Positions 31,871 through 51,135 of a stretch of DNA of 64,000 bases are shown here, piece by piece. The stretch is from the NCBI GenBank assembly GCA_963805625.1, contig CAWDVE010000017.1:352001-416000 (forward strand). Reading direction: 5' to 3'. Source of the DNA: an uncultured Candidatus Rokubacteria bacterium (GTDB taxonomy: Bacteria; Methylomirabilota; Methylomirabilia; Rokubacteriales; DASRDR01). The translations under genes were made by a program, and so were the position numbers. Under the pieces are notes generated by a model, which did not search any database, was not told the origin of the DNA, and was given only the letters and a program-made list of their open reading frames with translations. Each line of letters starts with the position of its first letter. Within the stretch, counting starts at the first letter, position 1.

Positions 31871-31905
31871 GCACATTGCAGCAGCGCGAGCGGAGGAGGG
31901 CGCCC

Positions 31906-33437: not shown

Positions 33438-35106
33438 GAGAGCCCTCCGCCTCGGGCTTCTCCTCGTTCTGGTCCTCGGTCTGGCGCTCCGGGCGTGGAG
33501 CGCGGCGTACGGCCTGCCGGACCTCTACCATCCCGACGAGCCGCGGATCGTGGAGCGGGCAATTCGCTTCCACCAGGGTGACCTGAACCCGAGGTTCTTC
33601 AACTGGCCCAGCCTGTACATGTACGTGATGGCCGGCGTGTACGGGCTCGCGTTCGGCGCGTCCCCTGGTGGCGTGGCCGCGGCGTTCGGCCGGGATCCGG
33701 CGCTCTTCTACCTCGTCGGGCGCCTGGTCACGGCGCTGTTCGGCACCGCTACGCTCGCCATCCTCTATTTCACCGGCCGGATGGCCTATGGCCGCGCGGT
33801 CGGGATCCTGGCGGCGGGACTCCTCGCCGTCGATCTCCTTCACGTCCGCGATTCTCACTGGGTCACGACGGACGTGCCGCTCACCTTCCTGATCACGCTC
33901 GCGACCTTCCTCGCGCTTCGCTACTGGCGGGACGGGCGCCTCGCCGATGCCGGCGCTGCCGGGCTGGTGGCAGGCCTGGCCACGTCGATGAAGTACCCGG
34001 GCGGCCTTGCCTTCCTCGGGCTCCTGGCTGCCCATGCCGCGCGACGGCCGGCCTGTCCGGCTTGGCGCCGCGTCGTGGGGCGGGACACCGTCGCGGCCGC
34101 CGGCCTCGCGGCTGGAGGCTTCGTCCTGGGGACGCCGTTCGCGCTGCTGACGCCGGTCGCGTTCGCGCGAGGCGTGTTTGACGAGCTCCGCGAGGTCCAC
34201 ACGGTGCAGTTCGGGAACGAAGCGGACGCTCCCGGCTATCTGTTCCACCTCGCCTACTCGCTGCCGGAGGCCATGGGCTGGCCGCTGTACCTCCTGGCTC
34301 TGGCGGGCCTCGGGTGGGCGCTCGCCCGACGCGGCGCCCGCGAGGCGGTCCTCCTCGCGTTTGCCGTGCCGTATCTCCTCGTGATCGTTAGCTGGAGCTC
34401 CCGCTTCGAGCGCTACGCGATCCCGCTCCTGCCGTGCTTCACACTCCTGGCCGCGGTGGCGCTGATCCGGGGCGTGGCCTGGCTGTCGGCGCGGGCGCGG
34501 CTCGTTTCGGGGCCATGGCCCGCCATCGCGCTGGCGGGAGCCGCGATGGTGCTCCTCGCGCCGGCGCTCGCGCGGGTGGCCGCCTATCACCAGCTGCTCG
34601 CGCAGCCGGACACTCGCGAGCTCGGCTCCGGCTGGGTCGAGCGCCAGGTGCCGCCTGGGGCGCGGATCGCGCTGGAGCCCTATAGCCTGATGCTGCCCGT
34701 CGCCCGCCGGCAGCTCCGCGAGGCGCCCGGCAGCCTGGGGCATCTGCAGCAGGCTCGTCCGGAGACCCCGACGCCGGAGTCCACCGGGCGGGAGGACGGC
34801 TACTGGCTGGTGCGTCTCGACACGTATGATCTCGACCGGCTGCTGGGAGACGGCGTCCAGTACGTGGTCCTGTCGGGCTTCGTGTACCAGCGTCACCGCC
34901 AAGCCTGCGATCGTCATCCGGCCCCGTGCCGCTTCTACGGGGAGCTCGAGGCCCGGTCGCGGCTCGTCTTCAGCGCCTCACCCGGCGTCGAGGACACCGG
35001 GCTGACCGTCGGCGACATCTATTCGCCGCTTACGCGGATCCGCGAGCGCCGGCACCCGGGCCCGCCGATCCGGATCTACCAGCTCCCGGCCGGAGGCCCG
35101 ACATGA
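33424..35106 (+). CDS. GT-C membrane glycosyltransferase (ArnT/PMT-like)
   Basis: TM1 then HPDEP acidic motif, NPRFFNWPSL, GRLVTALFG, SHWVTTDVP, GLATSMKY, RYAIP, DTRE; start codon not evident (ORF open from 33247, hydrophobic TM1 begins about 33445). Confidence 0.82.
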   Translation, partial: TGRSERALRLGLLLVLVLGLALRAWSAAYGLPDLYHPDEPRIVERAIRFHQGDLNPRFFNWPSLYMYVMAGVYGLAFGASPGGVAAAFGRDPALFYLVGRLVTALFGTATLAILYFTGRMAYGRAVGILAAGLLAVDLLHVRDSHWVTTDVPLTFLITLATFLALRYWRDGRLADAGAAGLVAGLATSMKYPGGLAFLGLLAAHAARRPACPAWRRVVGRDTVAAAGLAAGGFVLGTPFALLTPVAFARGVFDELREVHTVQFGNEADAPGYLFHLAYSLPEAMGWPLYLLALAGLGWALARRGAREAVLLAFAVPYLLVIVSWSSRFERYAIPLLPCFTLLAAVALIRGVAWLSARARLVSGPWPAIALAGAAMVLLAPALARVAAYHQLLAQPDTRELGSGWVERQVPPGARIALEPYSLMLPVARRQLREAPGSLGHLQQARPETPTPESTGREDGYWLVRLDTYDLDRLLGDGVQYVVLSGFVYQRHRQACDRHPAPCRFYGELEARSRLVFSASPGVEDTGLTVGDIYSPLTRIRERRHPGPPIRIYQLPAGGPT

Positions 35107-36566
35107 TCGGGTCTACGCGGGTGATTCCGGCCGCGTTCCTGGCGGCGGTGGGAGTGACCGCGCTGCGGCCGATCGACGACGCCGACTTCTGGTGGCTGCT
35201 CCGGGCCGGGCGCTACATGGTCGAGACCCGGAGCTTCCTCACCGCCGACCCGTTCTCGGCGACGGCGCAGGGCGCGGAGTGGCTCAACCATGCCTGGGGC
35301 TTCGAGCTCCTCGTCTACGGCCTCTACGCCCTCGCTGGCACGTCGGGAGTCATCCTCCTCCAGGGGCTCGCCGCGTCGGCGACCTTCGGGGTGCTCTACG
35401 GTCTCCTCCGGCGGGAGGGCGTGGGGCGGGGATGGTCCCTCGGCCTCCTGGGCCTTGGCGCCCTGGCGACCCACGGGTTCTGGTCGCCGCGCCCGCAGCT
35501 GGTCACCTACCTCATCTTGGCCCTCTTCGTGCGGGTCCTCGCTGACTACCAGGTCGGGTGGCGGAACCGCCTGTGGTGGCTCCCGATCCTGACGGCCGTG
35601 TGGGCGAACCTGCACGCGGGGTTCCTGGCCGGGCCCGCGCTCGTGGCCCTGTGCGCGGCCGGCGAGCTCGTCGGGTGGGCGCTGGGCGACGACACCGGGC
35701 GGGCCGGCGGCCTCGCCCGCGCGCGGGTGCTCGCGTTCTGGTCCGCGGCGAGCGTCGCGGCTTCGCTGGCGAACCCGTTCCACTACCACGCCGTCCTGTT
35801 TCCCTTCCAGGTGATGGGGGAACGGTTGTCGCAGGCGTGGATCATCGAGTGGGCTTCGCCGCCGTTCGGACACCCGCAGGTGCTCGTTCTCCAGCTGATG
35901 CTGGGCCTGATGCTGGTCCTCGCCCTGGGGACCGCGCGGCCGATACCGTGGCGCGATCTCGTCGTGCTGGTGCCGCTCGTGCACCTCGCGTTCCAGGCGA
36001 CTCGCAACACGCCGCTCCTGGTGATTGTCGCGACGCCGATCCTGGGCCGGGCGGTCGCCTCGTGCGCCGGGGCCCACTGGGCGCGCCTGCCGGGTCTCGG
36101 CCGGCGCGCGGTCGCGGCGGGGGCGCTCGGCCTCGTCCTCTCCGCGTGCAGCCTGGTGGCGGGCTCGCGCCAGCCTGCCCAGGTGTGGAGCGCGTTCCAC
36201 CCGGCCTTCGGTGTCGCCGACACCCTTCCGGCCGGTGCAGTGGACTTTCTTCGCCGAGAGGGTCGCCGGGGTACGCTCTGGAACGAGTATGTCTGGGGGG
36301 GCTACCTGATCTGGCACCTCTATCCGGAGCTCCGGGTGTCGATCGACGGCCGGATGGCCGTCTACGGCCCGGTACGTTTCCGGGAGCACCTGATCGTGTC
36401 CGAGCTGGAGCCTGGGTGGCAGGACGTCCTGGCGCGGCTCGACGTCAACGCGGCGGTTGTACGGAGCGGGTCTCCCTTGGTGTCGGCGCTCCGCGCCGCG
36501 GGCTGGGTGGTGCGCTACCAGGACCGGGTCGCGACCGTGCTCGGCCCTCCGGGGCGGACCGGATGA
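35103..36566 (+). CDS. Polytopic membrane protein, putative GT-C glycosyltransferase (paralogue 1)
   Basis: DADFWWLLRAG, DPFS, WLNHAW, RPQLVTY, WANLHAGF, NPF, IIEW.SP, RN.PL, YVWGGYLIW, IDGR. Confidence 0.7.
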   Translation: MIGSTRVIPAAFLAAVGVTALRPIDDADFWWLLRAGRYMVETRSFLTADPFSATAQGAEWLNHAWGFELLVYGLYALAGTSGVILLQGLAASATFGVLYGLLRREGVGRGWSLGLLGLGALATHGFWSPRPQLVTYLILALFVRVLADYQVGWRNRLWWLPILTAVWANLHAGFLAGPALVALCAAGELVGWALGDDTGRAGGLARARVLAFWSAASVAASLANPFHYHAVLFPFQVMGERLSQAWIIEWASPPFGHPQVLVLQLMLGLMLVLALGTARPIPWRDLVVLVPLVHLAFQATRNTPLLVIVATPILGRAVASCAGAHWARLPGLGRRAVAAGALGLVLSACSLVAGSRQPAQVWSAFHPAFGVADTLPAGAVDFLRREGRRGTLWNEYVWGGYLIWHLYPELRVSIDGRMAVYGPVRFREHLIVSELEPGWQDVLARLDVNAAVVRSGSPLVSALRAAGWVVRYQDRVATVLGPPGRTG

Positions 36567-38221
36567 GCGCCGGGCGGGCTGCCCGCGGCACGCTCCTCGC
36601 CGTCACTCTCCTGGTCGTGGCGACGATCGCCCTGTCCTCGCTGACGGTCTTCGACTTCTGGTGGTATCTGGCTTCCGGTCAGCGCATCCTCGCGATGCGC
36701 TCGGTGCCGGCGACGGATCCCTTCTCCTACACGGCCGAGGGCCGGCCGTGGATCAACCACATGTGGGCCACGCAGGTGCTGTTCGCGCTCCTCTGGGAGC
36801 GCTGGGGGCGGCTCGCGCTGATCGGCCTGAAGACCGCGACCGTGGTGGCCACCTTCTGCGTGGTCCTGGGGACGATGCGCGCCCGCGGCGTCCACCCGCT
36901 CCTGGCGTCGGCGGTGACGGTTCTGGCGGCGTGGACCGGCGCCGAGTTCTGGCATGCGCGGCCTCAGACCTTCACGTACCTGTTCGTGGCGATCCTGATC
37001 TGGCTCCTGCGGCCCGGGTGGGAGCGCCGCCCCGTCACGCTGGTCCTCGTGCCCGCGCTGGTGGTCCCCTGGGTCAACTTCCACGCCGGCTTCGTGATGG
37101 CGTTCCTGGTGATCGGGATCGCAGGTCTGGGCACCGCGGTCCCGCTGCTCGTCGACCCCGAGCGGCGCCGCGCCGGATGGCGCGTGGTCGGGCGCACGGC
37201 GTTCTTGGGGATGGCGGCGGCCGCCTCCAGCCTACTGAATCCATTCGGCGTGCGGGCGATCCTGTTCCCGCTCGAGGTCGTCCGCAGCGTGCCCTTCATG
37301 ACCTCGACGATCGAGTGGTTCCCCCCGAACTTCCACCACGCGGGCTTCCGGCCGCTCGAGCTCATGCTGCTCCTCCTGTTCCCGGCGTTCGCGTGGGGCC
37401 GGGGTCGGCTCAGCGCCGCCGACGTCGGGCTGGTCCTCGTGTTCGCGAACCTCGGGCTCACGTCGGTGCGGCATGTGCCCTTGTTCGCCATCGTGGCGGC
37501 GCCACCGCTTGCAGCCGCGCTCGGGGCGGTCATGGCCGAATGGCGTCGGGTCGACTGGGCCCGGATCCGTGACACCGTGCGGGGACGCCTGCCCTCGCTC
37601 GCGCCCGCGCTGACGGCGCCTAGCATGCCGGTGGTGGCCGGCGCCGTGCTCCTGCTGACCGCGGTGTCGGCGCACTGGGCCGGCATCGCCCGGGTGCCCA
37701 CGAACCCGCTTCGACTCGACCTCGAGGAGAGCCGGTACCCGGAACGGACCATGACCTTCATCAGGGAGAACCGGCTGCCCCATCAGCTCTTCAGCGTCTA
37801 TGCGTGGGGCGGATACGAGCTCTGGCGACTGTATCCCGAGTACCGGATGTTCATGGACGGCCGTACGCACGTGTACGGGCCCGACGTGCTCAAGGAGTTC
37901 TTGGACGTCGTCAACGTCAGCTCGCGCTGGCAGGTCGTGCTGGACAAGTGGCAGGTGCAGACCATCCTGGCGCTGCGCTCGTCGCCGCTCAGCGAGACGC
38001 TCCTGGCCCAGGGCGGCTGGCGGCTGGTCTTCACCGAGCGCGAGGCCGTCGTCTTCGTCCGCGAGACCGACGCGAATCGGCCGCTCCTGGCGCGCCTGGC
38101 CCGGCTGTCCCGCGAGGACGTCTCCGACGATTGGGTGGCAGCCACCGGCCATGGCGCCAGGCCCGCCGCCGCGGATGGGGGGGTCCTGGCCTGGGCGCCC
38201 CGCGAGGAGGGGATCCGATGA
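36563..38221 (+). CDS. Polytopic membrane protein, putative GT-C glycosyltransferase (paralogue 2)
   Basis: Same motif series as 35103: FDFWWYLASG, DPFSYT, WINHMW, RPQTFTY, WVNFHAGF, NPFG, TIEW.PP, RHVPLF, YAWGGY, MDGR. Confidence 0.7.
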   Translation: MSAGRAARGTLLAVTLLVVATIALSSLTVFDFWWYLASGQRILAMRSVPATDPFSYTAEGRPWINHMWATQVLFALLWERWGRLALIGLKTATVVATFCVVLGTMRARGVHPLLASAVTVLAAWTGAEFWHARPQTFTYLFVAILIWLLRPGWERRPVTLVLVPALVVPWVNFHAGFVMAFLVIGIAGLGTAVPLLVDPERRRAGWRVVGRTAFLGMAAAASSLLNPFGVRAILFPLEVVRSVPFMTSTIEWFPPNFHHAGFRPLELMLLLLFPAFAWGRGRLSAADVGLVLVFANLGLTSVRHVPLFAIVAAPPLAAALGAVMAEWRRVDWARIRDTVRGRLPSLAPALTAPSMPVVAGAVLLLTAVSAHWAGIARVPTNPLRLDLEESRYPERTMTFIRENRLPHQLFSVYAWGGYELWRLYPEYRMFMDGRTHVYGPDVLKEFLDVVNVSSRWQVVLDKWQVQTILALRSSPLSETLLAQGGWRLVFTEREAVVFVRETDANRPLLARLARLSREDVSDDWVAATGHGARPAAADGGVLAWAPREEGIR

Positions 38222-40257
38222 CCGCGCGCGGCGCGGTCGACGCCGTCCAGGTGGGGGCCGCGAGTGCCGGCGGCGAGCGCGTGCTGGGGCTGTTCCTGCG
38301 CGCCCTGATGGCCGCCCGGAAGTCGCTCAGCCTGTATCCGGCCGGGAGCGAGATCGCCTCGACCTGGGTCCGGCGGCTCCACCGTTCGCTGGCTGACTTC
38401 TTCCAGCAGGGGCTCTCCTTTCCCCTTCGCGTGGAGCCTGACCGCTTCGTCTGGGCAGGGCCGGACATTCGCACGGTCGAGCCCGCGCTGGAGGCTTTCC
38501 GGTTCGACCTGGAGAGCCGCGGGATCCGCGAGCTCGAGATCGATGCCGCCGTCGAGGAGTGGGAGCTCCAGGCCTTCCTCGAGCTCCTGAACATGCCGGG
38601 CGGGGAGCTCCGGCAGCTCGGGGGAGCCAGCGGATTCCTGTCCACCCGCGGAGTCCTGCGGGTCCGCATCGGCGCTCCCGGCGACGGCGAGAAGAGCGAG
38701 GCCGACACGAGCGAGGTTACCCGGCGGGCCCTCCAGACCGGCCGGGACGCCGTGGACTTGTTCGTCGAGACGGTCGTGGGGCTCGTCGAGACCCGGTTCG
38801 CGGACCTCACCTATGACCGGACCGCGCTGATCGCCTGGCTCCAGGACACGGCCACCGTGGGCCCCGACCGCCTCTACGCGGCAACGCGGATGATCCACGG
38901 TCTGGTCGAGCAAGCGCCGGATCGAGAGGTGAGGACCCGGACGCTGGTCGAGGCGCTGCTGGGCCTCCCCGAAGAGCTCCTCCGGCCCTTCTTCGCCGAC
39001 CACTTCATCCCGTTGGCCGGGCGCGATGTCCTCGCCCTCAACCTCCTCAGTCAGATGACCGAGGACGAGATCCGTCACGTGGCGGCGCGCCTCGTACCGC
39101 AGGAATCCCTCCTGGCGCTGAGCTCGGAGCTCCTCGAGTTTCCATGGGAGGAAGTGCAGCGCCGCCGCCTGGTCGAGGCGATCACGTCCGCGGTCCGGGC
39201 GGACGACTCGCCGAGCCTCCTGGGGGACGAGGGCGTCGTGCTCGAAGCCGACGATCCCCTCGTTGTGGAGCTCCGTGAGGAGATCCTGGCGTCGTGCCAG
39301 CCGGACGTCCTGCTCGAGCGCACCGCCCAGATCCTGCTCGCCCTGATATTGAACGTCGAGGGCGAGGAGCACGGGACCTCCGCCGCGGATGCCCTCGAGG
39401 AGATTCTGGGCGAAGCCCTCGCCCGGGGGCGGCTTGAGCTGGCCACGCAGGTGCTGTCGACCCTCGAGGAGTCCGTCCAGGCGAGCGGAGGGCAGAGCCC
39501 CGAGCGCGTCCAGCACCTCACCGTCCTCCAGCAGCGCCTGGGCGGGCGCACGCACGTCGCCCTTCTGGGTGGACTGCTGCGTCAACACGGCGGCAGCGAG
39601 CGGCAACTGGCCCTGGTCGCCCGGTACCTCGGTCTGGTCGCTCGCGAGGCGATCCAGGGGTTCACCTCGCTCCTGGCCGATGAGCGCGACCGCCAGGTTC
39701 GGGCGAGAATGTGCCAGGTTCTCGCCAAGGTGGGTCCGTCCATCGTGCCGACGCTCGTGGAGTGGCTCGAGGATTCGCGGTGGTTCCTGGTGCGCAATCT
39801 TGTCCACGTCCTGGGCAAGATCGGCGACGAGGCCGCATTCGGTCCGGTGGTGACACTCCTCGGCCATCCCCACGTCCGGGTGCGCATCGAGGCGGTGCGG
39901 GCGCTCGTCCTGATCGCCCCGACCCGCGCCGCGCTGCCGATCCTCCCGTTGTCGAGGGACGTCGACCCGGAGGTTCGGCTGGAAGCCGTCCGCGCCCTCG
40001 GAGCGCTCCGGCGGGACGAGGCCGTACCGGTCCTGCGGGACGTCGCGGCCGGGGCGGCGGGCGTTGCCGACGTCCCCCTGCGCCGAGAGGCCGTCGAGGC
40101 GCTGGCGGCGATCGGGACCGCCGGCTCCTGCGAGGCGCTGGCGGGTCTGGCTCGACGCCGCGTCTGGCCCTGGAAGCGGACCGAGCGCCGGCTCCGTGAG
40201 ATCGCCGTGGTCGCGCTGGCGGCGCGGACGGAAGATCAGGATGCTCCCGATGAGTGA
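38218..40257 (+). CDS. HEAT/PBS-lyase repeat protein
   Basis: N-terminal LSLYP..S domain; C-terminal repeats LEDSRWFLVRNLV.VLGKIG, HPHVRVRIEAVRAL, DVDPEVRLEAVRALG. Confidence 0.8.
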   Translation: MTARGAVDAVQVGAASAGGERVLGLFLRALMAARKSLSLYPAGSEIASTWVRRLHRSLADFFQQGLSFPLRVEPDRFVWAGPDIRTVEPALEAFRFDLESRGIRELEIDAAVEEWELQAFLELLNMPGGELRQLGGASGFLSTRGVLRVRIGAPGDGEKSEADTSEVTRRALQTGRDAVDLFVETVVGLVETRFADLTYDRTALIAWLQDTATVGPDRLYAATRMIHGLVEQAPDREVRTRTLVEALLGLPEELLRPFFADHFIPLAGRDVLALNLLSQMTEDEIRHVAARLVPQESLLALSSELLEFPWEEVQRRRLVEAITSAVRADDSPSLLGDEGVVLEADDPLVVELREEILASCQPDVLLERTAQILLALILNVEGEEHGTSAADALEEILGEALARGRLELATQVLSTLEESVQASGGQSPERVQHLTVLQQRLGGRTHVALLGGLLRQHGGSERQLALVARYLGLVAREAIQGFTSLLADERDRQVRARMCQVLAKVGPSIVPTLVEWLEDSRWFLVRNLVHVLGKIGDEAAFGPVVTLLGHPHVRVRIEAVRALVLIAPTRAALPILPLSRDVDPEVRLEAVRALGALRRDEAVPVLRDVAAGAAGVADVPLRREAVEALAAIGTAGSCEALAGLARRRVWPWKRTERRLREIAVVALAARTEDQDAPDE

Positions 40258-41410
40258 CGCTCTGCGACCCGATCCCCAGCTCATCTTCACCTATGTTCAC
40301 GGCATGTTGCGCGCCGCCGGACTCTACCTGCCGACTCACCCCCAGACGCATCGGGCCAAGCAGACACTCTTCGAGGCGCTGACCGCCTATCTGGCCGGGC
40401 AGGGACGGCTGACCTATCGCTTCATGGGCGATCTCCTCGTGGCCAACGACCGCATCCTGCCGCGCGAGAGTCTCCTGTACCGGCGTTTCCTGGAGACCTG
40501 CCAGCACGAGCGCGGTCTCGGCGCCATCGCGTTCACGGCGGGTCTCGAGGATCGAGAGATCGACGCCCTCCTCGAGGCGCTGACCGAGGGGGTGGGCGCG
40601 TCGATCGGCGAGTGGACCTCCCGCCGTCGGCTCACCCATCTCCACCTAGCTCCGCCGAGCCAACCTGACCGGCAAAGTAGCGAGGGCATCGCACGGCGGG
40701 CCTATTACGGGTCGATCGAGGTGCTGCGCGACGTCGAATCGACGATCCGAGACCGCCGGGCTCTCAGCCTCGAGCACGTCGGAACGCTCCGCGTGTACAC
40801 CTCCACCATATTGGAACAGATGCTGCAAGCTCCTGGACTCGTGCTAAGACTGGCCAGCATCAAGTCGTACGATGAGTACACGCTGTATCATTCCGTCAAC
40901 GTCGCGGTGATCTCCATGGGGATTGGTCTCGCGCTTGGTCTTCCACACGAGCTCCTGCGGGAGTTCGGGATGGCCGGGATGCTCCACGACCTGGGGAAGA
41001 TCGCGATCCCGCTCGAGGTGCTACGGAAGCCCGGCCTGCTCGATGCGGAGGAGTGGCGGATCATGTGCCGCCATCCCGTGCTCGGGGCCGACCTCCTCGC
41101 GCGGCTCCCCGGGTCGAACCGGCTCCCGTTGATCGTGGCCTTCGAGCATCACATGCGCTACGACGGCAAGGGCTACCCGTTCGTCCGGGAGGGCTGGCGC
41201 CAGCACCCGGTGAGCCGCCTCGCGTGCCTCGCCGACGTCTTCGACGCGATGACGTCGCGCCGCGCCTACAAGAAGGCGATCCCGCTGGATCAGGTGCGGA
41301 CGTTCGTGCGCGATGAAGCGGGCCGCACCTTCGATCCGCGGCTGGTGAAGGTACTGGACCTGACGCTGCGAATGATGCGGGATCGAGTCCCCGAGCAGGT
41401 ATCTGCGTGA
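40250..41410 (+). CDS. HD-GYP cyclic dinucleotide phosphodiesterase
   Basis: YDEYTLYHSVNV, LHDLGK, HP..G, EHHMRYDGKGYP, ADVFDAMTSRRAYK. Confidence 0.92.
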   Translation: MSDALRPDPQLIFTYVHGMLRAAGLYLPTHPQTHRAKQTLFEALTAYLAGQGRLTYRFMGDLLVANDRILPRESLLYRRFLETCQHERGLGAIAFTAGLEDREIDALLEALTEGVGASIGEWTSRRRLTHLHLAPPSQPDRQSSEGIARRAYYGSIEVLRDVESTIRDRRALSLEHVGTLRVYTSTILEQMLQAPGLVLRLASIKSYDEYTLYHSVNVAVISMGIGLALGLPHELLREFGMAGMLHDLGKIAIPLEVLRKPGLLDAEEWRIMCRHPVLGADLLARLPGSNRLPLIVAFEHHMRYDGKGYPFVREGWRQHPVSRLACLADVFDAMTSRRAYKKAIPLDQVRTFVRDEAGRTFDPRLVKVLDLTLRMMRDRVPEQVSA

Positions 41411-41715
41411 GGGCGTGGGTCGACGCCGTCAGCCTCGCGGGCTCGACCCTCCGGGTGACCGCGCCGGGCCCCCTGCCGGCTGACCGGGGCACGCTGGCCG
41501 TGGCGACTGCCATCCGCGTGTTCGAGCGGTTCCAGGCGCTCGACGGCCTGGTTCTGGCCGGAGCGGATGGCGAGGTGACGGTGACGCGCGGCGACGTCGA
41601 GCGGCTGCTCGCTCCGGAGGGCTTCGCGGCGCTCCGCGAGCGGAGCCGGTGGCCCCAGGTGCTGGCGCGCGCTGTCCAGCGGTACGCCGCAGCCCACGCC
41701 GAGGGTGGGGCATGA
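41407..41715 (+). CDS. Hypothetical protein (102 aa)
   Basis: 4-bp overlaps with both neighbours; genome-like codon use. Confidence 0.6.
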   Translation: MRAWVDAVSLAGSTLRVTAPGPLPADRGTLAVATAIRVFERFQALDGLVLAGADGEVTVTRGDVERLLAPEGFAALRERSRWPQVLARAVQRYAAAHAEGGA

Positions 41716-42740
41716 TCACCGCGCTCCCGCCCGTCGTGGCCTGGCCCGCCGGGGTGATCCTGGCCGCGCTCCTCGGCAGCTTCCTCAATGTCTGCATCTC
41801 CCGGCTACCGCGCGGGGAGAGCATCGTCCTGCCCGCATCGCACTGCCCGAACTGCCAGAATCCCATCCGACCGCTGGACAACATCCCCCTCGTGTCCTAC
41901 CTCGTCCTGGGCGGGCGTTGCCGAGCGTGCGGCGTGGCGATCTCCTGGCGGTACCCCCTGGTCGAGGCGCTCGCCGTCGTGCTCGGGGTCCTGATCCTGT
42001 GGCAGCTCGGGCCGACCTGGAATGCGGTGCGCGCATTCCTCCTCTGCCTGGCGATGGTGGCGGCCGCGTTCACCGACCTCGAGACGCGGCGGATCCCGGA
42101 CCGGATCACACTGCCGGGTGTGGTCGTCGCCTGCATCCTCGCCCCCGAGGGGCTCGGCCGGGGAAGTGCCGGGGCGGCGATTGGCGCGGCGATCTTCGCC
42201 GCGATCTCGATGGCGCGCGCCCGAGGCGCGGCGTCCCGCGGAGCGCCGCCCCCGCCCACCGAGGGGGAGGACGAGGTGGATCCCGCGGAGCGTCGGCGGC
42301 TCGACGTCTACTGGGCGGCGGCGTGGGGCGCGCTGATTGGACGGCAGCTCGCGGTGGTGAACCTCGCGGCGTTGACGGCGCCGGGCTGGCCGCTCACCTT
42401 TCGCGTCCTGGGCCAGGTCGACCTCCCGGTTACCGGCTGCATCGTCACGGGTGGCCTCTTCTTTCTCGTGGCCTGGCTCAGCCACGCCGTGCTCGGGCGC
42501 ACGGGCCTGGGCGGCGGGGACATCAAGCTGGCGGGGCTCATCGGGGCCGCCCTCGGCGCAGGCGGCGGGCTGGTCGCGGCGTTCGTAGGGATCATACTCG
42601 GGGGCGTGTTGGCCGCGGCCCTGCTCGTCTCGGGTCGCCGGCAGTTTGGCGAATACCTGCCCTTCGGGCCCTTCCTGGCCGTCGGAGGGATCGTGGCGGC
42701 CGTTTGGGGCCGCCCCATCATGGAGTGGTACCTTGGCTGA
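41712..42740 (+). CDS. pilD: Prepilin peptidase/N-methyltransferase PilD with internal insertion
   Basis: GSFLNVCI.RLP, SHCPNC, NIPLVSY..L.GRCRAC, YPLVE, TDL....IPD, GGGDIKL, PFGPFLA. Confidence 0.93.
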   Translation: MITALPPVVAWPAGVILAALLGSFLNVCISRLPRGESIVLPASHCPNCQNPIRPLDNIPLVSYLVLGGRCRACGVAISWRYPLVEALAVVLGVLILWQLGPTWNAVRAFLLCLAMVAAAFTDLETRRIPDRITLPGVVVACILAPEGLGRGSAGAAIGAAIFAAISMARARGAASRGAPPPPTEGEDEVDPAERRRLDVYWAAAWGALIGRQLAVVNLAALTAPGWPLTFRVLGQVDLPVTGCIVTGGLFFLVAWLSHAVLGRTGLGGGDIKLAGLIGAALGAGGGLVAAFVGIILGGVLAAALLVSGRRQFGEYLPFGPFLAVGGIVAAVWGRPIMEWYLG

Positions 42741-43620
42741 GCCGACCAGGACCGCCCGACGCGGCTCCTTCCGACCGGGGCGAGGTGTCCGGAAGAAGTT
42801 CCGGCTCGCCATTCTCATGGCGGGACTCCTTCCGCTGCTGTTCCTGGTCTACCTGGGATTGCCGGTCCTGCTTCCCAGCACGGTGACCGCTCCCCTCTAC
42901 CCGAAGGGCGCGCCCGTCTTCTTCTTGCTCCTCGCGTTCCTGGCGTTCCTCGAGGTGGCAGGCTTCTACATGATCTACAGCGACGTCCTCGGTTACATGC
43001 AGCGGAGCCTGGAGGACGAGCTGGATCGGCTGAGGGTGGGCGGGGCGAAGGTCGACGGGATCGTGGAGGAGCTCCGGCTGGCCAACTTCCGCCTCCGGGA
43101 GATGTCGCACACGGACGAGCTCACGGAGGTCGGCAACCGGCGGAGCTTCGACTTGCGGCTTCGGGAAGAGATCAGCCGGTCCAGCCGGTTCGGACACGCG
43201 TTCAGCCTGCTGATGATCGACATCGACGGGTTCAAGAAGTTCAACGACGAGTTCGGCCACCCGAAGGGAGACGCGGTGCTGCGCGCCCTCGGCGCGCTCA
43301 TGCGCTCGGCGTCGCGCGAGGGCGACGTGCCCTGCCGGGTTGGCGGCGAGGAGTTCGCGTTCATCCTGCCCGAGACGGGCAAGCCCGAGGGGCTGGTGTT
43401 CGCCGAGCGATTCCGCCGGCGCGTGGAGTCGAGCGTGATGGCGCCCGACAGCCTGAATCCGATCACGGTGAGCATCGGGCTGGCGGCGTTTCCCCAGGAC
43501 GGCCGGAACCCGGACGAGATCGTGTGGGCGGCCGACGAGGCACTATACGAGTCGAAGCGAGCAGGCCGGAACCGGGTGACGACCTACCCACGCAAGAGCG
43601 ACGAGGTCCCGGCCGGCTGA
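42733..43620 (+). CDS. Membrane-bound diguanylate cyclase
   Basis: Two TMs, coiled coil, TDELT...NRR, DIDGFKKFND.FGH..GD, I-site REGD, GGEEF; TTG start overlaps the pilD end. Confidence 0.92.
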   Translation: MAEPTRTARRGSFRPGRGVRKKFRLAILMAGLLPLLFLVYLGLPVLLPSTVTAPLYPKGAPVFFLLLAFLAFLEVAGFYMIYSDVLGYMQRSLEDELDRLRVGGAKVDGIVEELRLANFRLREMSHTDELTEVGNRRSFDLRLREEISRSSRFGHAFSLLMIDIDGFKKFNDEFGHPKGDAVLRALGALMRSASREGDVPCRVGGEEFAFILPETGKPEGLVFAERFRRRVESSVMAPDSLNPITVSIGLAAFPQDGRNPDEIVWAADEALYESKRAGRNRVTTYPRKSDEVPAG

Positions 43621-44633: not shown

Positions 44634-45464
44634 ATGTCTCGCAGGACGATGTCCTTACTGCGCGACGGGCGTGGACGCAGCGTGATCGAGCTGGTTGTCA
44701 CCCTCGCGCTCTTCGCCCTGGTGATGGTCGGTGTCGTTGGCACCTGGGGTAAGGCGCAGGAAGCCTACTTCATCGGGTCGGAGTCGGCCGAGGTGCAGCA
44801 GAATGTGCGCGCCGCCATGGACTTCATGGTCCGCGAGATCCGATCGGCAGGCCGGGACGCCACCGTCTGTGCGTTCGACTATGCGACGTCCTCGACCGTC
44901 GACTGTGATGGGGGCAAGGTGGCGAACTGCACCGCCAGGCTCGCCGGGACGGGCACCCCGACCTGGGAGACCGGTAACGGCGTCGGCGGTCCCGGGTGCA
45001 CCGGGTTATATGCGATCCCCTTCGCGCAGGCGACGGCGACCACCCTGCGCATACGCTCGGACCGCAACCACAATGGGCGGATCGCCGGGTTGGGTAATGC
45101 CATTACTTCACCGGCATCGGCGGCTGACCGCGGCGAGGAGGACGTGCTCTACGCGCTTTCGACGGTGAACTGCCCGCCGGGAGTGCCCCAGTGCATCACG
45201 CGGGACGATGGGACGGGACCTGTGGCGATGGTGGCGGTGGACATCAATGGCCTGACGTTTACCTACTACCCCCGGGCGAACTTCGGCCCCTGTGCCGGCC
45301 AGGCCAACCCATGCAACATCGCCTTCGGGCTGCCGCTGTCGAGCCAGTCCCAAGCGGACAACATCGGGCGGATCCGCATCTCGGTCCAGGCGCAGCAGCA
45401 AATCGGCGGCCAAATGGTGAGCAGCACCCTTGTCACCGAAGTTACACTCCGAAACCGTTCGTAG
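44634..45464 (+). CDS. PilW-like minor pilin
   Basis: G|RSVIELVVTLALFALVM, QQNVRAAMDFMVREIRSAG, Cys-rich head, C-terminal V.LRN. Confidence 0.82.
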   Translation: MSRRTMSLLRDGRGRSVIELVVTLALFALVMVGVVGTWGKAQEAYFIGSESAEVQQNVRAAMDFMVREIRSAGRDATVCAFDYATSSTVDCDGGKVANCTARLAGTGTPTWETGNGVGGPGCTGLYAIPFAQATATTLRIRSDRNHNGRIAGLGNAITSPASAADRGEEDVLYALSTVNCPPGVPQCITRDDGTGPVAMVAVDINGLTFTYYPRANFGPCAGQANPCNIAFGLPLSSQSQADNIGRIRISVQAQQQIGGQMVSSTLVTEVTLRNRS

Positions 45465-45483
45465 CAGAGAAGCAGCGGGGAAG

Positions 45484-47046
45484 ATGAGATCAACCCTACA
45501 CAGCCAGCGGGGATCGGCCCTCATCATTGCGGTCATCGCAATGCTCATCCTCGGTATCCTGAGCTTCTCGTTCGCCCTCCTGGCAAGGATTGAGATGACG
45601 ACCGGGATCAACTACAAATTTCAGGCCCAGGCCGAGGCCCTGGCCGAGGCCGGGCTCGAACGGGGGCGGGACGAGGTTCGCACCGCGGCCGACGAGGCAT
45701 GCGGGTTCACGAAATGGACCGACCCCGGCAACTCGTCCCCGTACGGCTGTGGCGCCGGGTTCGCCAAGCTGCTCTTCAACAGTGTCGGTTTGGGGGCCGG
45801 CAACTACTCGGCGGTCATCGATAATGACTGCAGCCCCCTCGTGCCCGCGGCGATCCAGGACCCGAGCTGTAGCGGGGGCTTGGCCGGCCGCGACACGAAC
45901 GAGACGGCGATCCTCACGGCCTGGGCTACGGCAGCGAACGGGCAGGGACGGGCCCGGGTGCGCGCGGTTCTCGGGATCGACAATCCCTGGAAGCACGTCT
46001 GCTCGAACTCGAGCCAGGACAATCCGCCCGGCTACTGCAACGAGCCGGCCAACCGGAACGGAAGTCCCTCGATCGTGCCGGCGGACCCGAACGAGTACCC
46101 GGGCGGCCCCGCTGCATACGATGAGTTGCCCCGGCCCCAATTGGGCTGTTCTGCGGTCGACGTGACCCTGCACTATGAAACGGTCGGCAACTGCCCCCCT
46201 GGTACGAACGATGACTACCCCTATACGCTGGGTCGGCGGTACGTCGTCCAGGGCGATACCATCAAGGGCAACTGCGGCACCTTCGGCGGAGTCACCTTCA
46301 GAGGGTATTTCGACTGCGCTCTCACGACGCCCTGCGAGGCGCCGGCCTGTAGTCCCACCCGCAGGGCCTGCGTCCCCGCTTTGGACCCACGGTTATCTGA
46401 CACCACCCGTTACTACGACGCTTCAAGCCCCGGTGGGTGCGGCGCCAATACTGGGATGGTCTTCATCGGCAACGTGAACTGGAACAACCATGGCAATGTC
46501 GGGGGCTCCGGGAATGGCCGGAACATGTACGTGATGAATGGCACGTTGTCCATCCAGGGGGACGTGTTCCACGGGGTCATCGTGGTCGAAGGCGATGGGG
46601 GCGGCGGCGACGACCTCCAGCACAGGAACCAGGCGATCATCTGGACCGAGCAAACCAACACGACTCATGGCCGGCCGGTATACGGCTATCCCCTGGCCTA
46701 TCTGGTTTATGATTCGGAGCTGCCGGCTCCGACGGCCAATCCTCTGGCGCCCCAGAATACGTTCTCCGACATCGGCAGTGCCTCCGGAACCGAAGTCCAC
46801 GGGCTCGTCTACTCGGGCGGGCATGCGCAGTTCAAGCCCGTCATCATGGATGGGGGCGTCATCGCTTTCGAGATCCAGACCCAGTCCACGGCCTCCAGCT
46901 ACGGCTACAACTCCACGTATGGCAACGCGGCCCCCCCGCCTGGCTTCCCGGTGGGATCGGGCAATACGGTGGTCCTCGTCCGGAAGTCGTTCCTCGTTTG
47001 CGTGGACTACGCCGCCGACACGGGAGGCGGCAGCTCCTGTCGGTAG
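45484..47046 (+). CDS. Large Cys-rich PilX-like minor pilin
   Basis: QRG|SALIIAVIAMLILGIL (no E5, as in PilX), AEALAEAGLE; 520 aa with 16 Cys. Confidence 0.8.
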   Translation: MRSTLHSQRGSALIIAVIAMLILGILSFSFALLARIEMTTGINYKFQAQAEALAEAGLERGRDEVRTAADEACGFTKWTDPGNSSPYGCGAGFAKLLFNSVGLGAGNYSAVIDNDCSPLVPAAIQDPSCSGGLAGRDTNETAILTAWATAANGQGRARVRAVLGIDNPWKHVCSNSSQDNPPGYCNEPANRNGSPSIVPADPNEYPGGPAAYDELPRPQLGCSAVDVTLHYETVGNCPPGTNDDYPYTLGRRYVVQGDTIKGNCGTFGGVTFRGYFDCALTTPCEAPACSPTRRACVPALDPRLSDTTRYYDASSPGGCGANTGMVFIGNVNWNNHGNVGGSGNGRNMYVMNGTLSIQGDVFHGVIVVEGDGGGGDDLQHRNQAIIWTEQTNTTHGRPVYGYPLAYLVYDSELPAPTANPLAPQNTFSDIGSASGTEVHGLVYSGGHAQFKPVIMDGGVIAFEIQTQSTASSYGYNSTYGNAAPPPGFPVGSGNTVVLVRKSFLVCVDYAADTGGGSSCR

Positions 47047-47061: not shown

Positions 47062-47121
47062 TGGCGCGGCAAATGCTAACGTTTCACAATATCTCGAAGT
47101 CCACGCAGCCCTGCGTATAAT
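47062..47121 (+). promoter_or_regulatory. Candidate promoters for the hybrid kinase: sigma54-like site and -10 box implying leaderless mRNA
   Basis: TGGCGCG-GCAA-ATGCT (47062-47077); perfect TATAAT at 47116-47121, 6 nt before ATG 47128, no SD. Confidence 0.5.
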
Positions 47122-47127
47122 AGCGCC

Positions 47128-49893
47128 ATGCCACCGCCCCCGAGCAGCACGTACAAGGTAGGTCTGGTCGGGACGGGGATCCACCTCGTTCAGGCGATCG
47201 AGGCGCTCCGGGCCGTCCAGGGAGTCACGATCGCCATCGTTGCCGACGCGAGTGACCGCTCTGACGGGGGCAAGCTCGCGAAGAGCCTCCACCTGCCGGT
47301 CGTCAAGAACGCCATGGAGGTATTCAAGACCGAGGCCAACCTCGTCATCGAGGTCAGCGGCGACGAGCGCCAGTACGAGCGGCTCCTGTCGATCAAGCCA
47401 CCGGGCGTCGAGGTGATGAGCGTTCGCGGCGCCCGTCTTTTCATGGATCTCCTCAAGAAGGCCGAGGTCGCGCCGGGTGGGGGGGAGCTCGGAGGCCCAG
47501 CGGCCGGATCCCCGGTCTCCCGCGACGGCATCCACCTGCTCGAGCCCCTGACCGTGGCACTCGAGGACGCCCTCCGCCACACGGGGGCCCCGGGTGACTC
47601 GGCCAAGGCGATGCTCCCGGGAGTTGCCCGCGCGACGGGGATGGAATGGGCGGCGCTCGCCATGCCGGGCACGGGGGGTGCCCTCTCGTGGATCGTCGCC
47701 GCCCCGGAGAGCATGGCGCTGTCCCGACTGCCGGCCGACAAGATCCGGCAGGTTCTCGGGCGAGGCGAACCCCTCTGGTTGATGCGGCCGAGCAAGGGTG
47801 TAGGGACCGCCGGGATTCTTCCGCTGCACGCGGGCGCTGATCTAATGGGCCTCCTGCTGGTGGGTCGATCGGGTGACAGCGCCGCGACGCCGGCGGAGCT
47901 CCTCGCCTCCCAGCTCGCGGCGGGCGTGGTGTCCTCCTCACTGCGGGCCGCCCAGCCGGCCGCCGCGGCCGCTCCAATCGAGGTCGTGAAGGAAGTCGTG
48001 CGAGAGGTGCCGGTCGAGGTAGTCCGTGAGGTGGAGGTCATCCGGGAGATCCCGGTCGACCGCGAGGTCATCCGGGAAGTACCGGTGGAGGTCGTGAAGG
48101 AGATCGTGCGGGAGGTGCCGGTCAACCAGGAGGTCGTGCGCGAGGTGGTGCGGGAGGTCCCGGTCGAGGTGATCCGCGAAGTGGAGGTCGTCCGGGAGGT
48201 CCCGGTCCAGGTTCCCGTGGAGTTCCTGAAGGAGATTGTGCGAGAAGTGCCGGTGGACCGGGAGGTCGTGCGGGAGGTGCCGGTCGAAGTCGTGAAGGAG
48301 GTCGTGCGGGAAGTGCCGGTCGATCGCGAGGTCGTCCGGGAGGTTCCGGTGGAAGTCGTGAAGGAGGTCATCCGGGAGGTGCCCGTCGACCGCGAGGTAG
48401 TGCGGGAAGTCCCGGTCGAGGTGATCCGCGAGGTGGAGGTCATCCGGGAGGTCCCGGTTCAGGTTCCCGTGGAGTTCCTGAAGGAGGTCGTGCGAGAAGT
48501 CCCGATCGAGCGCGAGGTTATCCGCGAAGTTCCCGTGGAAGTCGTGCGGGAGGTGCCGGTCGACCGCGAGGTCGTCCGGGAAGTCCCGGTCGAGGTGGTC
48601 AAGGAGATCGTCCGGGACGTTCCGGTGGAGATCATCCGGGAGGTGCCCGTCGACCGGGAGGTCGTACGGGAGGTCGTCCGCGACACCACTCGGATCGACG
48701 AGGAGGAGTTTCGGCGGCTGCGCCGACGGCTCGAGGAGCTGGAAACGACCCAGGATCAGCTGGCCGCACGGGCCGGCCGGATCCCCGTCGACGAGAAGAT
48801 GCAAGCCCTCCTAAACATGGCCGGCGGGGTAGGGCACGTCTTCAACAACGTGCTGGCGGGCATTCTCGGGCGCACCCAGCTCCTGGTGAAGCGGGCCTCA
48901 CGGGAGAAATCTCGGGAGATCGCCTCGGGGCTGCACGAGATCGAGTCCGCCACTCGCACCGGGATCGACGCCCTCTCGCGGATCCAGGAGTTCAGCCGCT
49001 CCCGGCCGGCCGAGCCGTTCGGCCCCGTCGACCTGAACGACATCGTCCAGCGTGCGGTCGAACAGACGCGGGCGAGGTGGCGGGACGAGCCCACGGCGCG
49101 CGGCGCGCCCATCGAGCTGATCACCCACTTCGGGCCGCACGCGCAGCTCATCGGGGCCGAGTCGGAGCTGCTCGAAGCCACCGTGCAGTTGCTCCACAAC
49201 GCTGTGGACGCCATGCCGCGGGGCGGTACGATCACGATTCGCACCGGGCTCGACGCCGGCCGTGCCACCATGTCGGTGTCGGACACGGGCGTGGGTATGT
49301 CCGAGGCGGTCCGCCGGCGCGCGTTCGAGCCGTTCTTCTCGACCAAGGGTGAGACCGGCCTGGGCCTCGGGCTCTCGATGGTCTACGGGGTCATGGCCCG
49401 CCATGGAGGCGATTCCACGCTCGACAGCGAGGAAGGGCGCGGCACGACGGTCACGCTGCGCCTGCCGACTGCTGGCGAGGGCGCGCCCCCTCCGCTCGCT
49501 GGCGCCGAGACGGATCGCCCGCAGGTGCTGCTGGTGGACGATGACGAGACCGTCCGGACGGCCGTCGGCGACATGCTGCGCGGCGCCGCCTACTCCGTCA
49601 CGCTGGCGGGCTCGGGCCTCGAGGGTATCGCCAAGGTGCGTGAACGCGAGGGCGCGTACGATCTCGTCATCACCGATCTCGGCATGCCGGACGTTCCCGG
49701 ATGGGAGGTCGTCGAGGCGGTGAAACAGGTGGACGCGACCACGCCGGTCGTGATCCTGTCCGGGTTCGATCGGGCGCGCGCGACACGCCGCGCGCGAGAG
49801 CTAGGCGTCGACATGGTGATCTCCAAGCCGTTCGACATTCAGGAGTTCCTCACCACTGTCCACGGGCTTCTGGCCGGCCGCAAACGCGGCTAG
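47128..49893 (+). CDS. Cytoplasmic hybrid histidine kinase with Rossmann-like and GAF-like input and a long Val/Glu/Arg/Pro repeat
   Basis: KVGLVGTG N-terminus, GAF-like LPL......GLLLVG, repeat, GVGHVFNN H box, NAVDAM, DTGVGM, FEPFFSTK, GLGLGL, REC (LVDDD, TDLGMP, KPF). Confidence 0.9.
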   Translation: MPPPPSSTYKVGLVGTGIHLVQAIEALRAVQGVTIAIVADASDRSDGGKLAKSLHLPVVKNAMEVFKTEANLVIEVSGDERQYERLLSIKPPGVEVMSVRGARLFMDLLKKAEVAPGGGELGGPAAGSPVSRDGIHLLEPLTVALEDALRHTGAPGDSAKAMLPGVARATGMEWAALAMPGTGGALSWIVAAPESMALSRLPADKIRQVLGRGEPLWLMRPSKGVGTAGILPLHAGADLMGLLLVGRSGDSAATPAELLASQLAAGVVSSSLRAAQPAAAAAPIEVVKEVVREVPVEVVREVEVIREIPVDREVIREVPVEVVKEIVREVPVNQEVVREVVREVPVEVIREVEVVREVPVQVPVEFLKEIVREVPVDREVVREVPVEVVKEVVREVPVDREVVREVPVEVVKEVIREVPVDREVVREVPVEVIREVEVIREVPVQVPVEFLKEVVREVPIEREVIREVPVEVVREVPVDREVVREVPVEVVKEIVRDVPVEIIREVPVDREVVREVVRDTTRIDEEEFRRLRRRLEELETTQDQLAARAGRIPVDEKMQALLNMAGGVGHVFNNVLAGILGRTQLLVKRASREKSREIASGLHEIESATRTGIDALSRIQEFSRSRPAEPFGPVDLNDIVQRAVEQTRARWRDEPTARGAPIELITHFGPHAQLIGAESELLEATVQLLHNAVDAMPRGGTITIRTGLDAGRATMSVSDTGVGMSEAVRRRAFEPFFSTKGETGLGLGLSMVYGVMARHGGDSTLDSEEGRGTTVTLRLPTAGEGAPPPLAGAETDRPQVLLVDDDETVRTAVGDMLRGAAYSVTLAGSGLEGIAKVREREGAYDLVITDLGMPDVPGWEVVEAVKQVDATTPVVILSGFDRARATRRARELGVDMVISKPFDIQEFLTTVHGLLAGRKRG
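47977..48684 (+). repeat. Intragenic degenerate tandem repeat encoding (E/D)-V-V-R-E-V-P-V units
   Basis: 236 codons almost only V/I/E/R/K/P/D; 66-nt unit at 48256, 48322, 48388; higher-order copy at 48166 and 48418 (252 nt apart); synonymous codon variation. Confidence 0.95.
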
Positions 49894-49935
49894 CCATCTC
49901 CCATAAGTTCTTGTAATCGTTGATGTTTTAAAATG

Positions 49936-49964
49936 TTGACTAGCAATTCCACGCGAGTCATACT
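49936..49964 (+). promoter_or_regulatory. Sigma70 promoter of pilMNOPQ
   Basis: TTGACT-N17-CATACT in an AT-rich intergenic region; IHF-like TTACAAGAACTTA on the minus strand just upstream. Confidence 0.7.
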
Positions 49965-50079
49965 CACCAACAAGTAATTACTACAAAGACCTGTAAACAG
50001 AACGATGGAAGAGCGAAAAAAAATAGTTTTGGGGTTTCGCGGATGCTGCGCGAGACTCGCGGGCAGTGAGGAATAACCT

Positions 50080-51135
50080 ATGACGTTCTGGAAGAAGAAG
50101 AAGCGACCTGAAGTAGTCGGCCTGGACATCGGCACGAGCGCGATCAAGGTGGTCGAGCTCAAGCCGAAGGGGTCGGCCTACGAGCTGAGTGGATTCGGCA
50201 TCGCCCACGTGCCCGCCGGCGCGATTCAGGGGGGCGAGGTGAAGCAGCCGGACGCGGTGCAGCAGGCGATCCGACAGGCCCTCGTGCAGGGCGGGGTCCA
50301 CGCCACCGAGGCCGTGATCGGTGTGTCGGGAGGCTCCGTTATCGCCAAGCGCGTCAACCTCCCCAAGATGTCGGAGAGCGAGCTCGGCGAATCCATCCGC
50401 TGGGAGGCCGAGCAGCACATCCCCTTCGACATCGACGACGTCAACATCGATTTCCAGATCCTGCGGCAGGACGGACCTCAGCTGGAAGTCATGCTGGTGG
50501 CGGTGAAGAAGGGAAAGGTCCAGAGCTACGCGGACGTCGTGGAGGCGTGCGGGCTCAACGTCGTGGTGGTGGACGTCGACGTCTTCGCGCTCGAGACGCA
50601 GTACCAGCACAACGAGCCTGCTCAGGGCAACGAGGTCGTCGCGCTCGTGAACATCGGGCACGAGACCACGAACACGAACATCCTGCAGGGCGGGGTAAAT
50701 GTGTACGCCCGCGACATCTTCGTCGGGGGCCGGCAGTACGCCTCGACGATCGCCCAGCGCTTCGACCTGGCCCCGGCCGAGGCCGAGGCCATCGTCCGGG
50801 GCGAGCAGGGGTCGGTGAGCTGGGTCGAGGTGGAGCCGGTCCTGGACCTGGTCTCCCAGGAGATCGGCCAGGAGATCCAGCGAACGCTCGACTACTTCGG
50901 CACCACGGCCGAGCACGAGCGTATCCAGCGGATCTTCCTCTCGGGCGGCTGCGCCTTGATCCCGGGTCTCCAGGAGTTCCTGGCCGGACAGTGGGGGATC
51001 GAAGTGATTCGGGCGAACCCCTTCAAGCGGGTTGACGTGGGCACCGGGACCGATGCGGGCATGGTCGACAAGCTGGCGCCGCTCGCGAGCGTCGCGACCG
51101 GGCTGGCAATGCGCTATCCGGACGACCGGAAGTAA
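50080..51135 (+). CDS. pilM: Type IV pilus assembly protein PilM
   Basis: VGLDIGTSAIKVVEL, WEAEQHIPF, DVDVFAL, VNIG, EIQRTLDYF, LSGG, ATGLAMR. Confidence 0.96.
   Translation: MTFWKKKKRPEVVGLDIGTSAIKVVELKPKGSAYELSGFGIAHVPAGAIQGGEVKQPDAVQQAIRQALVQGGVHATEAVIGVSGGSVIAKRVNLPKMSESELGESIRWEAEQHIPFDIDDVNIDFQILRQDGPQLEVMLVAVKKGKVQSYADVVEACGLNVVVVDVDVFALETQYQHNEPAQGNEVVALVNIGHETTNTNILQGGVNVYARDIFVGGRQYASTIAQRFDLAPAEAEAIVRGEQGSVSWVEVEPVLDLVSQEIGQEIQRTLDYFGTTAEHERIQRIFLSGGCALIPGLQEFLAGQWGIEVIRANPFKRVDVGTGTDAGMVDKLAPLASVATGLAMRYPDDRK

Follow-up and report, generated by a model that had tools for sequence, protein, structure and literature searches.

Articulins and epiplastins have been defined by a medial domain of acid-base dyads, rich in valine/isoleucine and charged residues and nearly free of glycine and alanine, for which beta-strand and coil without helix are predicted, with more than three VPV motifs as the threshold for the articulin subclass; under the rule of Goodenough et al. 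2018, a protein without a demonstrated sub-membrane epiplast is termed "epiplastin-like" (PMC6212826). Articulin-like proteins have also been reported in Caulobacter (PMC6212826; Al-Khattaf et al., PMC4303705). Alveolin domains appear disordered when modeled as monomers, and are predicted to adopt twisted beta-ribbons when modeled together with a partner (PMC12465100). In histidine kinases, the acid following the phosphorylated His (H+1) is needed for kinase activity and Thr/Asn at H+4 for phosphatase activity (PMC3510030), and DrBphP, lacking the H+1 acid and the N-box Asn, functions as a phosphatase only (bioRxiv 2020.06.26.173310). The subject of this study is a hybrid histidine-kinase-like gene (47128..49893; forward strand, as for all features given below in this notation) from an uncultured Candidatus Rokubacteria bacterium, found in a stretch of 64,000 nucleotides (nt; contig CAWDVE010000017.1 of assembly GCA_963805625.1, positions 352,001 to 416,000; referred to as the window). 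This open reading frame (ORF) encodes 921 amino acids (aa) without a transmembrane segment (highest 19-residue hydropathy, 1.53), and combines an articulin/epiplastin-like repeat with a kinase core inside a type IV pilus gene cluster.

The best explanation, to which we assign a probability of about 0.42, is a kinase-dead but phosphatase-competent accessory regulator of the pilus that bears a beta-ribbon arm tolerant of length changes and is likely connected with control of cyclic di-GMP (c-di-GMP) through HEAT and HD-GYP proteins. Its firm basis consists of the order of the domains, the absence of catalytic residues, a receiver that is intact and the most conserved of the large domains, the register and length range of the repeat, the fixed position before pilM, and two (likely independent) losses together with HEAT and HD-GYP genes. 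The architecture is real, conserved, and undescribed, yet assembled from known parts; the novelty probably lies in the kinase death, itself probable, of this repeat-bearing pilus-locus protein, such repeats having been known from Caulobacter. Literature searches, mostly without reach into subscription papers, found no description of this protein, in agreement with an earlier note on this stretch, which knew of no two-component system of this kind.

The catalytic residues were compared in a family set of 47 sequences (37 from a similarity search, including the protein of the window, and 10 from genome loci). The DHp-like helical hairpin (48793..48999) contains an H-box of H570-V-F-N-N574, with no acid after His and with Asn at H+4. 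Among the 45 readable sequences, H+1 was Val (30), Ile (10), or Leu (5), and never an acid; His was replaced by Gln in five, all from one subclade and identical to those with Leu at H+1. D/E was found at H+1 in 26 of the 27 other kinases of the same genome that covered the H-box. The first N-box position, assigned as the partner of the H+1 acid by alignment and the DrBphP paper, was occupied by Gln in 39 of the 41 sequences read by pattern (Gln687 in the window), with one sequence each having His and Glu, and Asn was present there in 30 of 36 hits of the same genome. Asn at H+4 (N574) was conserved in all 45 readable H-boxes. HATPase_c (49159..49470; Pfam, 5.4e-22) retained the second N-box Asn and the G1, F, and G2 boxes. 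The receiver (49525..49860; Pfam, 1.1e-22), aligning with that of ArlR over 120 residues (Z 20.0; root mean square deviation (rmsd) 1.4), possessed intact D804-806, D850, S878, and K900, and its proportion of nonsynonymous differences (pN) from six orthologues (0.009-0.025) was the lowest of the large domains. Since the H+1 acid was absent in 45/45, His was lost in five, and the first N-box Asn was lost, the protein is probably kinase-dead, which weakens the active kinase of the earlier note.

DrBphP is similar in that the H+1 acid and the N-box Asn are both lost and the H+4 phosphatase residue is kept, while the Rokubacteria protein has other input domains and its own receiver. CckA-type cytoplasmic hybrid histidine kinases share the order DHp-CA-REC and an intact receiver, and gave the best NCBIfam matches (CckA, EspC, and PRK13557), all far under the cut-offs (122-141 bits vs 1000 for the CckA equivalog); on the other hand, the Rokubacteria protein differs from them in having neither the H+1 acid nor the first N-box Asn, in the loss of His in one subclade, in the repeat insert, and in having no membrane segment. 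DivL is also a phosphatase-only or pseudo histidine kinase.

Between the input domains and this core lies a tract of 236 residues (aa 284-519; 47977..48684) made up almost entirely of V/I/E/R/K/P/D, as the earlier note had stated and residue counts bore out: V91, E54, R32, P21, I15, D8, K7, Q3, F2, L2, and N1. V+I accounted for 44.9% and charged residues for 42.8%, G/A/S/T were absent, the net charge was -23, and the charge dyads were mainly base-first (39 vs 7). Together with 19 VPV motifs (more than three being needed), this composition placed the repeat within the articulin type, "epiplastin-like" by sequence criteria. The internal periods proposed earlier fared unevenly. The period of 22 aa was found (identity of 0.54 at lag 22; aa 362-410 were identical to the sequence 22 residues on at 45/49, with 21 synonymous codon differences), but the 84-aa duplication was reduced to a block of 52 aa (aa 338-389) recurring 84 residues on at 47/52, the full 84-mer matching at only 59/84; units ending in Pro were 4-14 aa long, mostly 10-14 and always even (8-12 aa in the earlier note). 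Tandem Repeats Finder reported array periods of 66, 120, and 132 nt (69-71% matches). Codon identity between identical residues was approximately random at most lags and slightly elevated at lag 84 (0.64 vs 0.52), in line with codons that are synonymously diversified while the protein pattern is maintained.

The most regular property of the repeat was its odd/even register. In the protein of the window, charge parity was 101/101, in comparison with a maximum of 0.72 in 10,000 shuffles, and, therefore, is not due to chance. Across the 47 family sequences, acids (1907/1930) and Pro (613/617) occupied one parity and bases (1215/1237) the other, and Pro-Pro spacings were even in 569/570. In comparison with six orthologues, the repeat had pN of 0.03-0.14 and a proportion of synonymous differences (pS) of 0.25-0.56, with the final 50 residues being strongly conserved (pN 0-0.04); all 32 indels were even, a count that depends on an ambiguous repeat alignment and is not independent of parity. 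By these sequence comparisons, the repeat is under purifying selection, with the protein pattern being selected. When antiparallel registers were counted, even ones placed no Pro at hydrogen-bonded positions and odd ones approximately 8. This strict alternation is the predicted signature of a beta-strand, here of a two-stranded beta-ribbon, and we consider an ordered ribbon within the cell to be somewhat favored; of the extended beta-ribbon suggested in the earlier note, the beta-type register was supported.

The repeat core varied 30-fold in length (12-354 aa in 40 sequences with the N-terminus). A tree built from kinase-core sequences recovered the family as one clade (100/100); basal members had cores of 12-40 aa, and long tracts (90-354 aa) all fell into one clade (98/95), some with and some without the GAF-like domain. 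Because of this range and the absence of the GAF-like domain from whole subclades, a tuned mechanical gate, as in the earlier note, is unlikely. An expansion during assembly was also rejected: six full-length orthologues had tracts of 218-250 aa with differing unit order, and contigs from public runs matched 47697-48179 (0 differences), 48222-48441 (1), and 48402-48560 (1); no single listed piece covered the whole repeat, and one run may be the source sample. Contigs from four RNA libraries also mapped to the gene and repeat (shares of 0.05-0.07), and contigs cannot demonstrate transcription.

With respect to known repeats, the likeness to articulins and epiplastins consists of a medial, low-complexity, V/I-rich and charged domain with VPV motifs and charge dyads and without G/A/S/T. 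Unlike these structural proteins with a head-repeat-tail organization, the Rokubacteria repeat is embedded in a two-component protein, is R-rich with base-first dyads, and no epiplast is known in this organism. Alveolins also have a Val/Pro/charged repeat and a low-confidence monomer model (PMC12465100), but differ in their EKIVEVP heptad, the units here all being even in length. Neither the whole protein nor the repeat alone matched the Pfam IMCp model at E<=0.1, and the repeat contained no heptad-like sequence; alveolin membership was, therefore, rejected, and the likeness drawn in the earlier note was retained for articulin/epiplastin-like composition and not for IMCp. When the repeat alone was used as a query, 348 clusters were obtained at E<=0.001 among 1.84 billion representatives. 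Among the best 150 of these clusters, 110 proteins not seen before and no longer than 1200 aa were scanned, and the partners included PP2C, PadR, RskA, zf-HC2, DeoR, ParA-like, OmpA, SBP_5, G5, SPOR, DUF2760, CAP-Gly, and DnaJ, with neither IMCp nor kinase domains among them. Carriers from the similarity search that yielded the family set were labeled as bacteria, fungi, ciliates, and dinoflagellates. Parity held in most unrelated carriers, which were themselves found by similarity. The repeat is a portable module and not specific to alveolins, with the Rokubacteria family being the only kinase-type carrier among those seen. No second protein of this kind was encoded in the genome (7.27 Mb, six frames), and one degenerate repeat pattern gave no matches in viral contigs. 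The same even-register V/E/K/P repeat was present in many unrelated proteins of bacteria and eukaryotes (P0034-P0245), also including PTS IIC, anti-sigma factors, and fungal PF12814 proteins, and no Pfam model covers it; Pfam MgtE_N and Extensin matches on the repeats of relatives were taken as compositional noise.

The earlier note had proposed a Rossmann-like/GAF-like input followed by HisKA, HATPase, and REC. All of these were found except for HisKA, for which Pfam had no match in the 921-aa protein, while the DHp was HisKA-like by alignment to CckA-type kinases. The N-terminal domain (aa 9-114; 47152..47469) has a Rossmann fold in an AlphaFold2 model (predicted local distance difference test (pLDDT) of 89), with acylating aldehyde dehydrogenase 4jn6 as the best structural match (Z 11.1, rmsd 2.4, 102 aligned) and Gfo/Idh/MocA enzymes next (Z range overall, 11.1-9.9). 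A PDB sequence search with aa 1-283 gave no matches at E<=10. Pfam DapB_N/GFO matches occurred in 6 of 17 aligned members, all of which were paralogues. Dinucleotide binding is doubtful because GTGxx[L/V/M] (GTGxxL in the window) replaced GxGxxG in 36/36 family N-termini, whereas GxGxxG was intact in 7/7 distant paralogues. The same domain also heads other kinases of the order, and proteins that we take, from familiar motifs, to be sigma-54 activators (approximately 30% identity over 100 aa); it may also resemble Bacillus BkdR, a likeness appearing in a search listing and not confirmed. The GAF-like domain (aa 134-275; 47527..47952) was recognized from the secondary structure of the model and from Pfam GAF_3 in 3 of 5 scanned orthologues (P0006, P0013, and P0176), with no GAF_3 match in the 921-aa protein itself. 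A charged helix (aa 524-548; 48697..48771), conserved in the family alignment, likely forms a coiled coil running into DHp. A fold search with the full-length model returned receiver domains only, and the best ESM Atlas feature score was 0.79, under the lead threshold.

Of 251 Methylomirabilota genomes, 16 carried the gene, and these belong to three families within a single order (15 with an N-terminal domain of at least 65% identity and one in which the gene is cut by a contig end). It was found in none of the 159 genomes of the large sister family f2 (searched with the N-terminal domain, and in 37 of them with the whole protein), of which 119 possess pilM; these tallies include the unpublished genomes G038, G055, G094, and G104. 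A 51% match to the N-terminal domain in genome G007 was excluded from the orthologue count; this different, short protein (L073:8093-8960) consists of the Rossmann-like domain and a small domain with RRxxxRR-like motifs, with no pilus gene near. Searches of metagenomes (47/64 parts) gave three loci, all with pilX upstream, and a search of genome contigs over 5/64 parts, too small a share to bear on absence from other phyla, gave one full-length member. Two homologues are labeled Methylomirabilota at NCBI, and the closest titled kinase cores Rokubacteria. Among the orthologues, two are frameshifted in the repeat, one has an N gap, and one is frameshifted in the kinase core, possibly by sequencing errors.

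The placement between minor pilins and pilM was confirmed, and the linkage to pilM and variation in repeat length that the earlier note had set out for a survey of homologues were both found. The gene was located directly 5' of pilM in 16/16 genomes and 3' of pilX in 12; of the other four, three reach a contig edge and one is a short contig without pilX. A TATAAT -10-like motif (47116..47121), 6 nt 5' of ATG, likely acts as its own leaderless-type promoter, and lay 6-9 nt ahead of the start codon in 13 of the 15 upstream regions read. A separate sigma70-like promoter motif of pilM (49936..49964) recurred in 11 of 16 upstream regions. From these motifs, the kinase-like gene is likely transcribed on its own, and, together with its dispensability, this speaks against the model of the earlier note.

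Close pilM sequences (at least 60% identity) were present in 18 genomes, 16 of which carried the kinase-like gene. The remaining two, G004 and G008, had remnants only: in the former, a repeat-like stretch of approximately 30 nt separates pilX from pilM, and in the latter a frameshifted receiver fragment is left. Both were also without the HEAT, HD-GYP, 102-aa, and FimT-like genes, and retained pilB/T/C/A/D/V/W/X/M-Q and the glycosyltransferase region; G004 had additionally lost pilS/pilR. In a tree of six locus proteins (13/17 rows, quick tree), a G004+G008 clade was rejected by the approximately unbiased (AU) test (p 0.009), and the two losses are, therefore, likely independent. In the window, the HEAT-repeat protein (37804..40257; its true start is probably further in) and HD-GYP-type (HD_5) protein (40064..41410) are the co-lost genes. 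HEAT was present in 15 of the 16 gene-bearing genomes, and missing from one that is 68% complete. These patterns suggested an optional regulatory module of the kinase-like gene, HEAT, and HD-GYP, on two events only, and a role in the pilus and c-di-GMP is slightly the better bet.

The proposed mechanism is as follows. The protein would dimerize through the coiled coil and DHp, as in other kinases of this class. In the absence of autophosphorylation, a different kinase would phosphorylate the receiver, while the Asn of DHp would dephosphorylate either this receiver or that of a partner. The repeat may form an antiparallel ribbon of two strands, in which every proline points outward at a non-hydrogen-bonded position, either by folding back on itself (approximately 40 nm) or by pairing with a second chain (up to approximately 80 nm); such a ribbon would present one acidic and one basic face, with prolines guarding its edges, and may function as a self-pairing arm or as a spacer that tolerates changes in length. 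In the c-di-GMP control of pilus activity, the protein would act jointly with HEAT and HD-GYP.

Several observations weigh against this explanation. His was retained in 40/45 and the ATP-binding boxes were largely intact, and some activity, or phosphorylation of His by another route, may be possible. The 47 family sequences are kin, with some near-duplicates, and duplication of even-length units alone would preserve parity with little selection. Even registers bring like charges across strands (0.19 per pair), and the AlphaFold2 monomer had a pLDDT of 25-32 over the repeat, with neither helix nor strand assigned; alveolin domains behave likewise as monomers, so that this low confidence does not decide the ribbon question. 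G007, G016, and G018 possess HEAT and HD-GYP, and 4 of 97 f2 genomes possess HEAT, although no kinase-like gene was found in any of these; in four other genera, HEAT and HD-GYP are located away from the pilus locus. The co-loss rests on two lineages, with a general trimming of regulators as an alternative (G004 lost pilS/pilR), and G008 is a frameshift-rich assembly with two locus copies. Moreover, its own promoter motif means that co-transcription with pilus genes would not be needed. As separate observations, the 102-aa gene was seen within the pilus locus in two of the four genera, and the two copies in G008 (C65 and C93) share identical deletions, probably representing two strains or long-read errors.

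The same evidence was weighed under other explanations. If composition alone matters, the repeat may be a disordered soluble spacer without a stable ribbon, its parity being a by-product of the duplication of even-length units. The low pLDDT without secondary structure, the range of 12-354 aa, and the occurrence of the repeat beside PP2C, PadR, anti-sigma, OmpA, SBP, G5, SPOR, CAP-Gly, and other unrelated domains agree with such a spacer; however, 236 residues with 45% V+I and no G/A/S/T, a parity that survives point substitutions, 32/32 indels, and most unrelated carriers, the low pN/pS, and the similarly disordered appearance of alveolins in monomer models (PMC12465100) make it rather unlikely. 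Conversely, the repeats of many dimers may interlock into filaments or a mesh, as in alveolins, forming a self-assembling scaffold by which a c-di-GMP signaling hub would be assembled close to the pilus machinery. The epiplastin-like/articulin composition, acidic and basic faces that could stack, Rossmann and kinase catalytic motifs that are altered while the folds are retained, and the reliance of alveolin recruitment on alveolin-alveolin contacts (PMC12465100) speak for this scaffold, but prolines at the outward edge every 8-14 residues should block sheet growth, basal members manage with 12-40 aa, and the genome encodes only one such protein; we regard it as quite unlikely. Its stronger form, a bacterial pseudokinase whose alveolin-type beta-ribbon polymerizes it into a filament or mesh, so that a c-di-GMP signaling hub is built at the type IV pilus, is a shade less probable still. 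If true, this would be a membrane-skeleton principle of protists used in two-component signaling, and one case of a portable ribbon module across hundreds of unrelated protein clusters.

An active kinase whose output responds to force or distance, relayed along a rigid repeat rod by the pilus motor or the input domains, would account for the position of the repeat between input and transmitter, the high conservation of its last 50 residues (pN 0-0.04), the mostly retained His and ATP-binding boxes, and the fixed place before pilM. It is nevertheless very unlikely in view of the H+1 acid (absent in 45/45), the five losses of His, and the loss of the first N-box Asn, as well as the 30-fold length range, the optional GAF, and the lack of a membrane anchor. 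The gene may also owe its place in the pilus cluster merely to descent, and regulate something else: it has its own promoter motif and pilM a separate one, the surrounding gene order is common by descent, pilM occurs without an orthologue in 119/159 f2 genomes, and two genomes keep the pilus without the kinase-like gene. Against this stand a position kept across three families and the fact that further genes of this locus were lost along with it more than once, and such a bystander role is unlikely. The accessory regulator with probable phosphatase function and a ribbon arm remains our preferred explanation.

For the folding and assembly of alveolin/articulin repeats, the relevant papers offer predictions only. 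The present family supplies a soluble bacterial repeat with a built-in dimerizing anchor, a natural length series of 12-354 aa, and a strict odd/even rule, by which ribbon models become directly testable. Type IV pilus clusters thereby gain a conserved regulator that is probably a pseudo-kinase or a phosphatase only, and a partner module of HEAT and HD-GYP is suggested. The surprise is tempered by the wide distribution of the repeat, previously noted in Caulobacter, and by a function read from sequence only.

The pilus region lies entirely within the window, and comprises pilB, pilT, pilC, a PilS/PilR-like pair, a pilin, glycosylation genes, HEAT, HD-GYP, pilD, GGDEF, minor pilins, the hybrid kinase-like gene, and pilMNOPQ. 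The upstream neighbor (45430..47046) was named as a pilX-like minor pilin from its position and N-terminal pilin-like helix, with no Pfam match, and the downstream neighbor is pilM (50080..51135; Pfam PilM_2, 1.5e-74), followed by pilNOPQ. In the AT-rich 186 nt before pilM (49894-50079), blocks other than the promoter are also conserved throughout the genus and, in part, in the family; a regulator site or a 5' leader of approximately 110 nt is possible. At 37804-41715, the HEAT, HD-GYP, and 102-aa ORFs overlap or abut. The HD-GYP of this locus reads HHMRYDGKGYP, without Glu following HH; Glu is present there in the usual motif. A membrane-anchored GGDEF protein with a GGEEF motif (42646-43620) also lies inside the locus and is retained where HD-GYP is lost. 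The interval from the pilin to the HEAT gene (31783-38221) encodes three membrane proteins along with a glycosyltransferase of family 2, and these likely glycosylate the pilin. In three loci (L063, L064, and L069 of G005, G001, and G019), the minor pilin genes preceding pilX are interspersed with several additional kilobases, suggesting additional or swapped minor-pilin sets.

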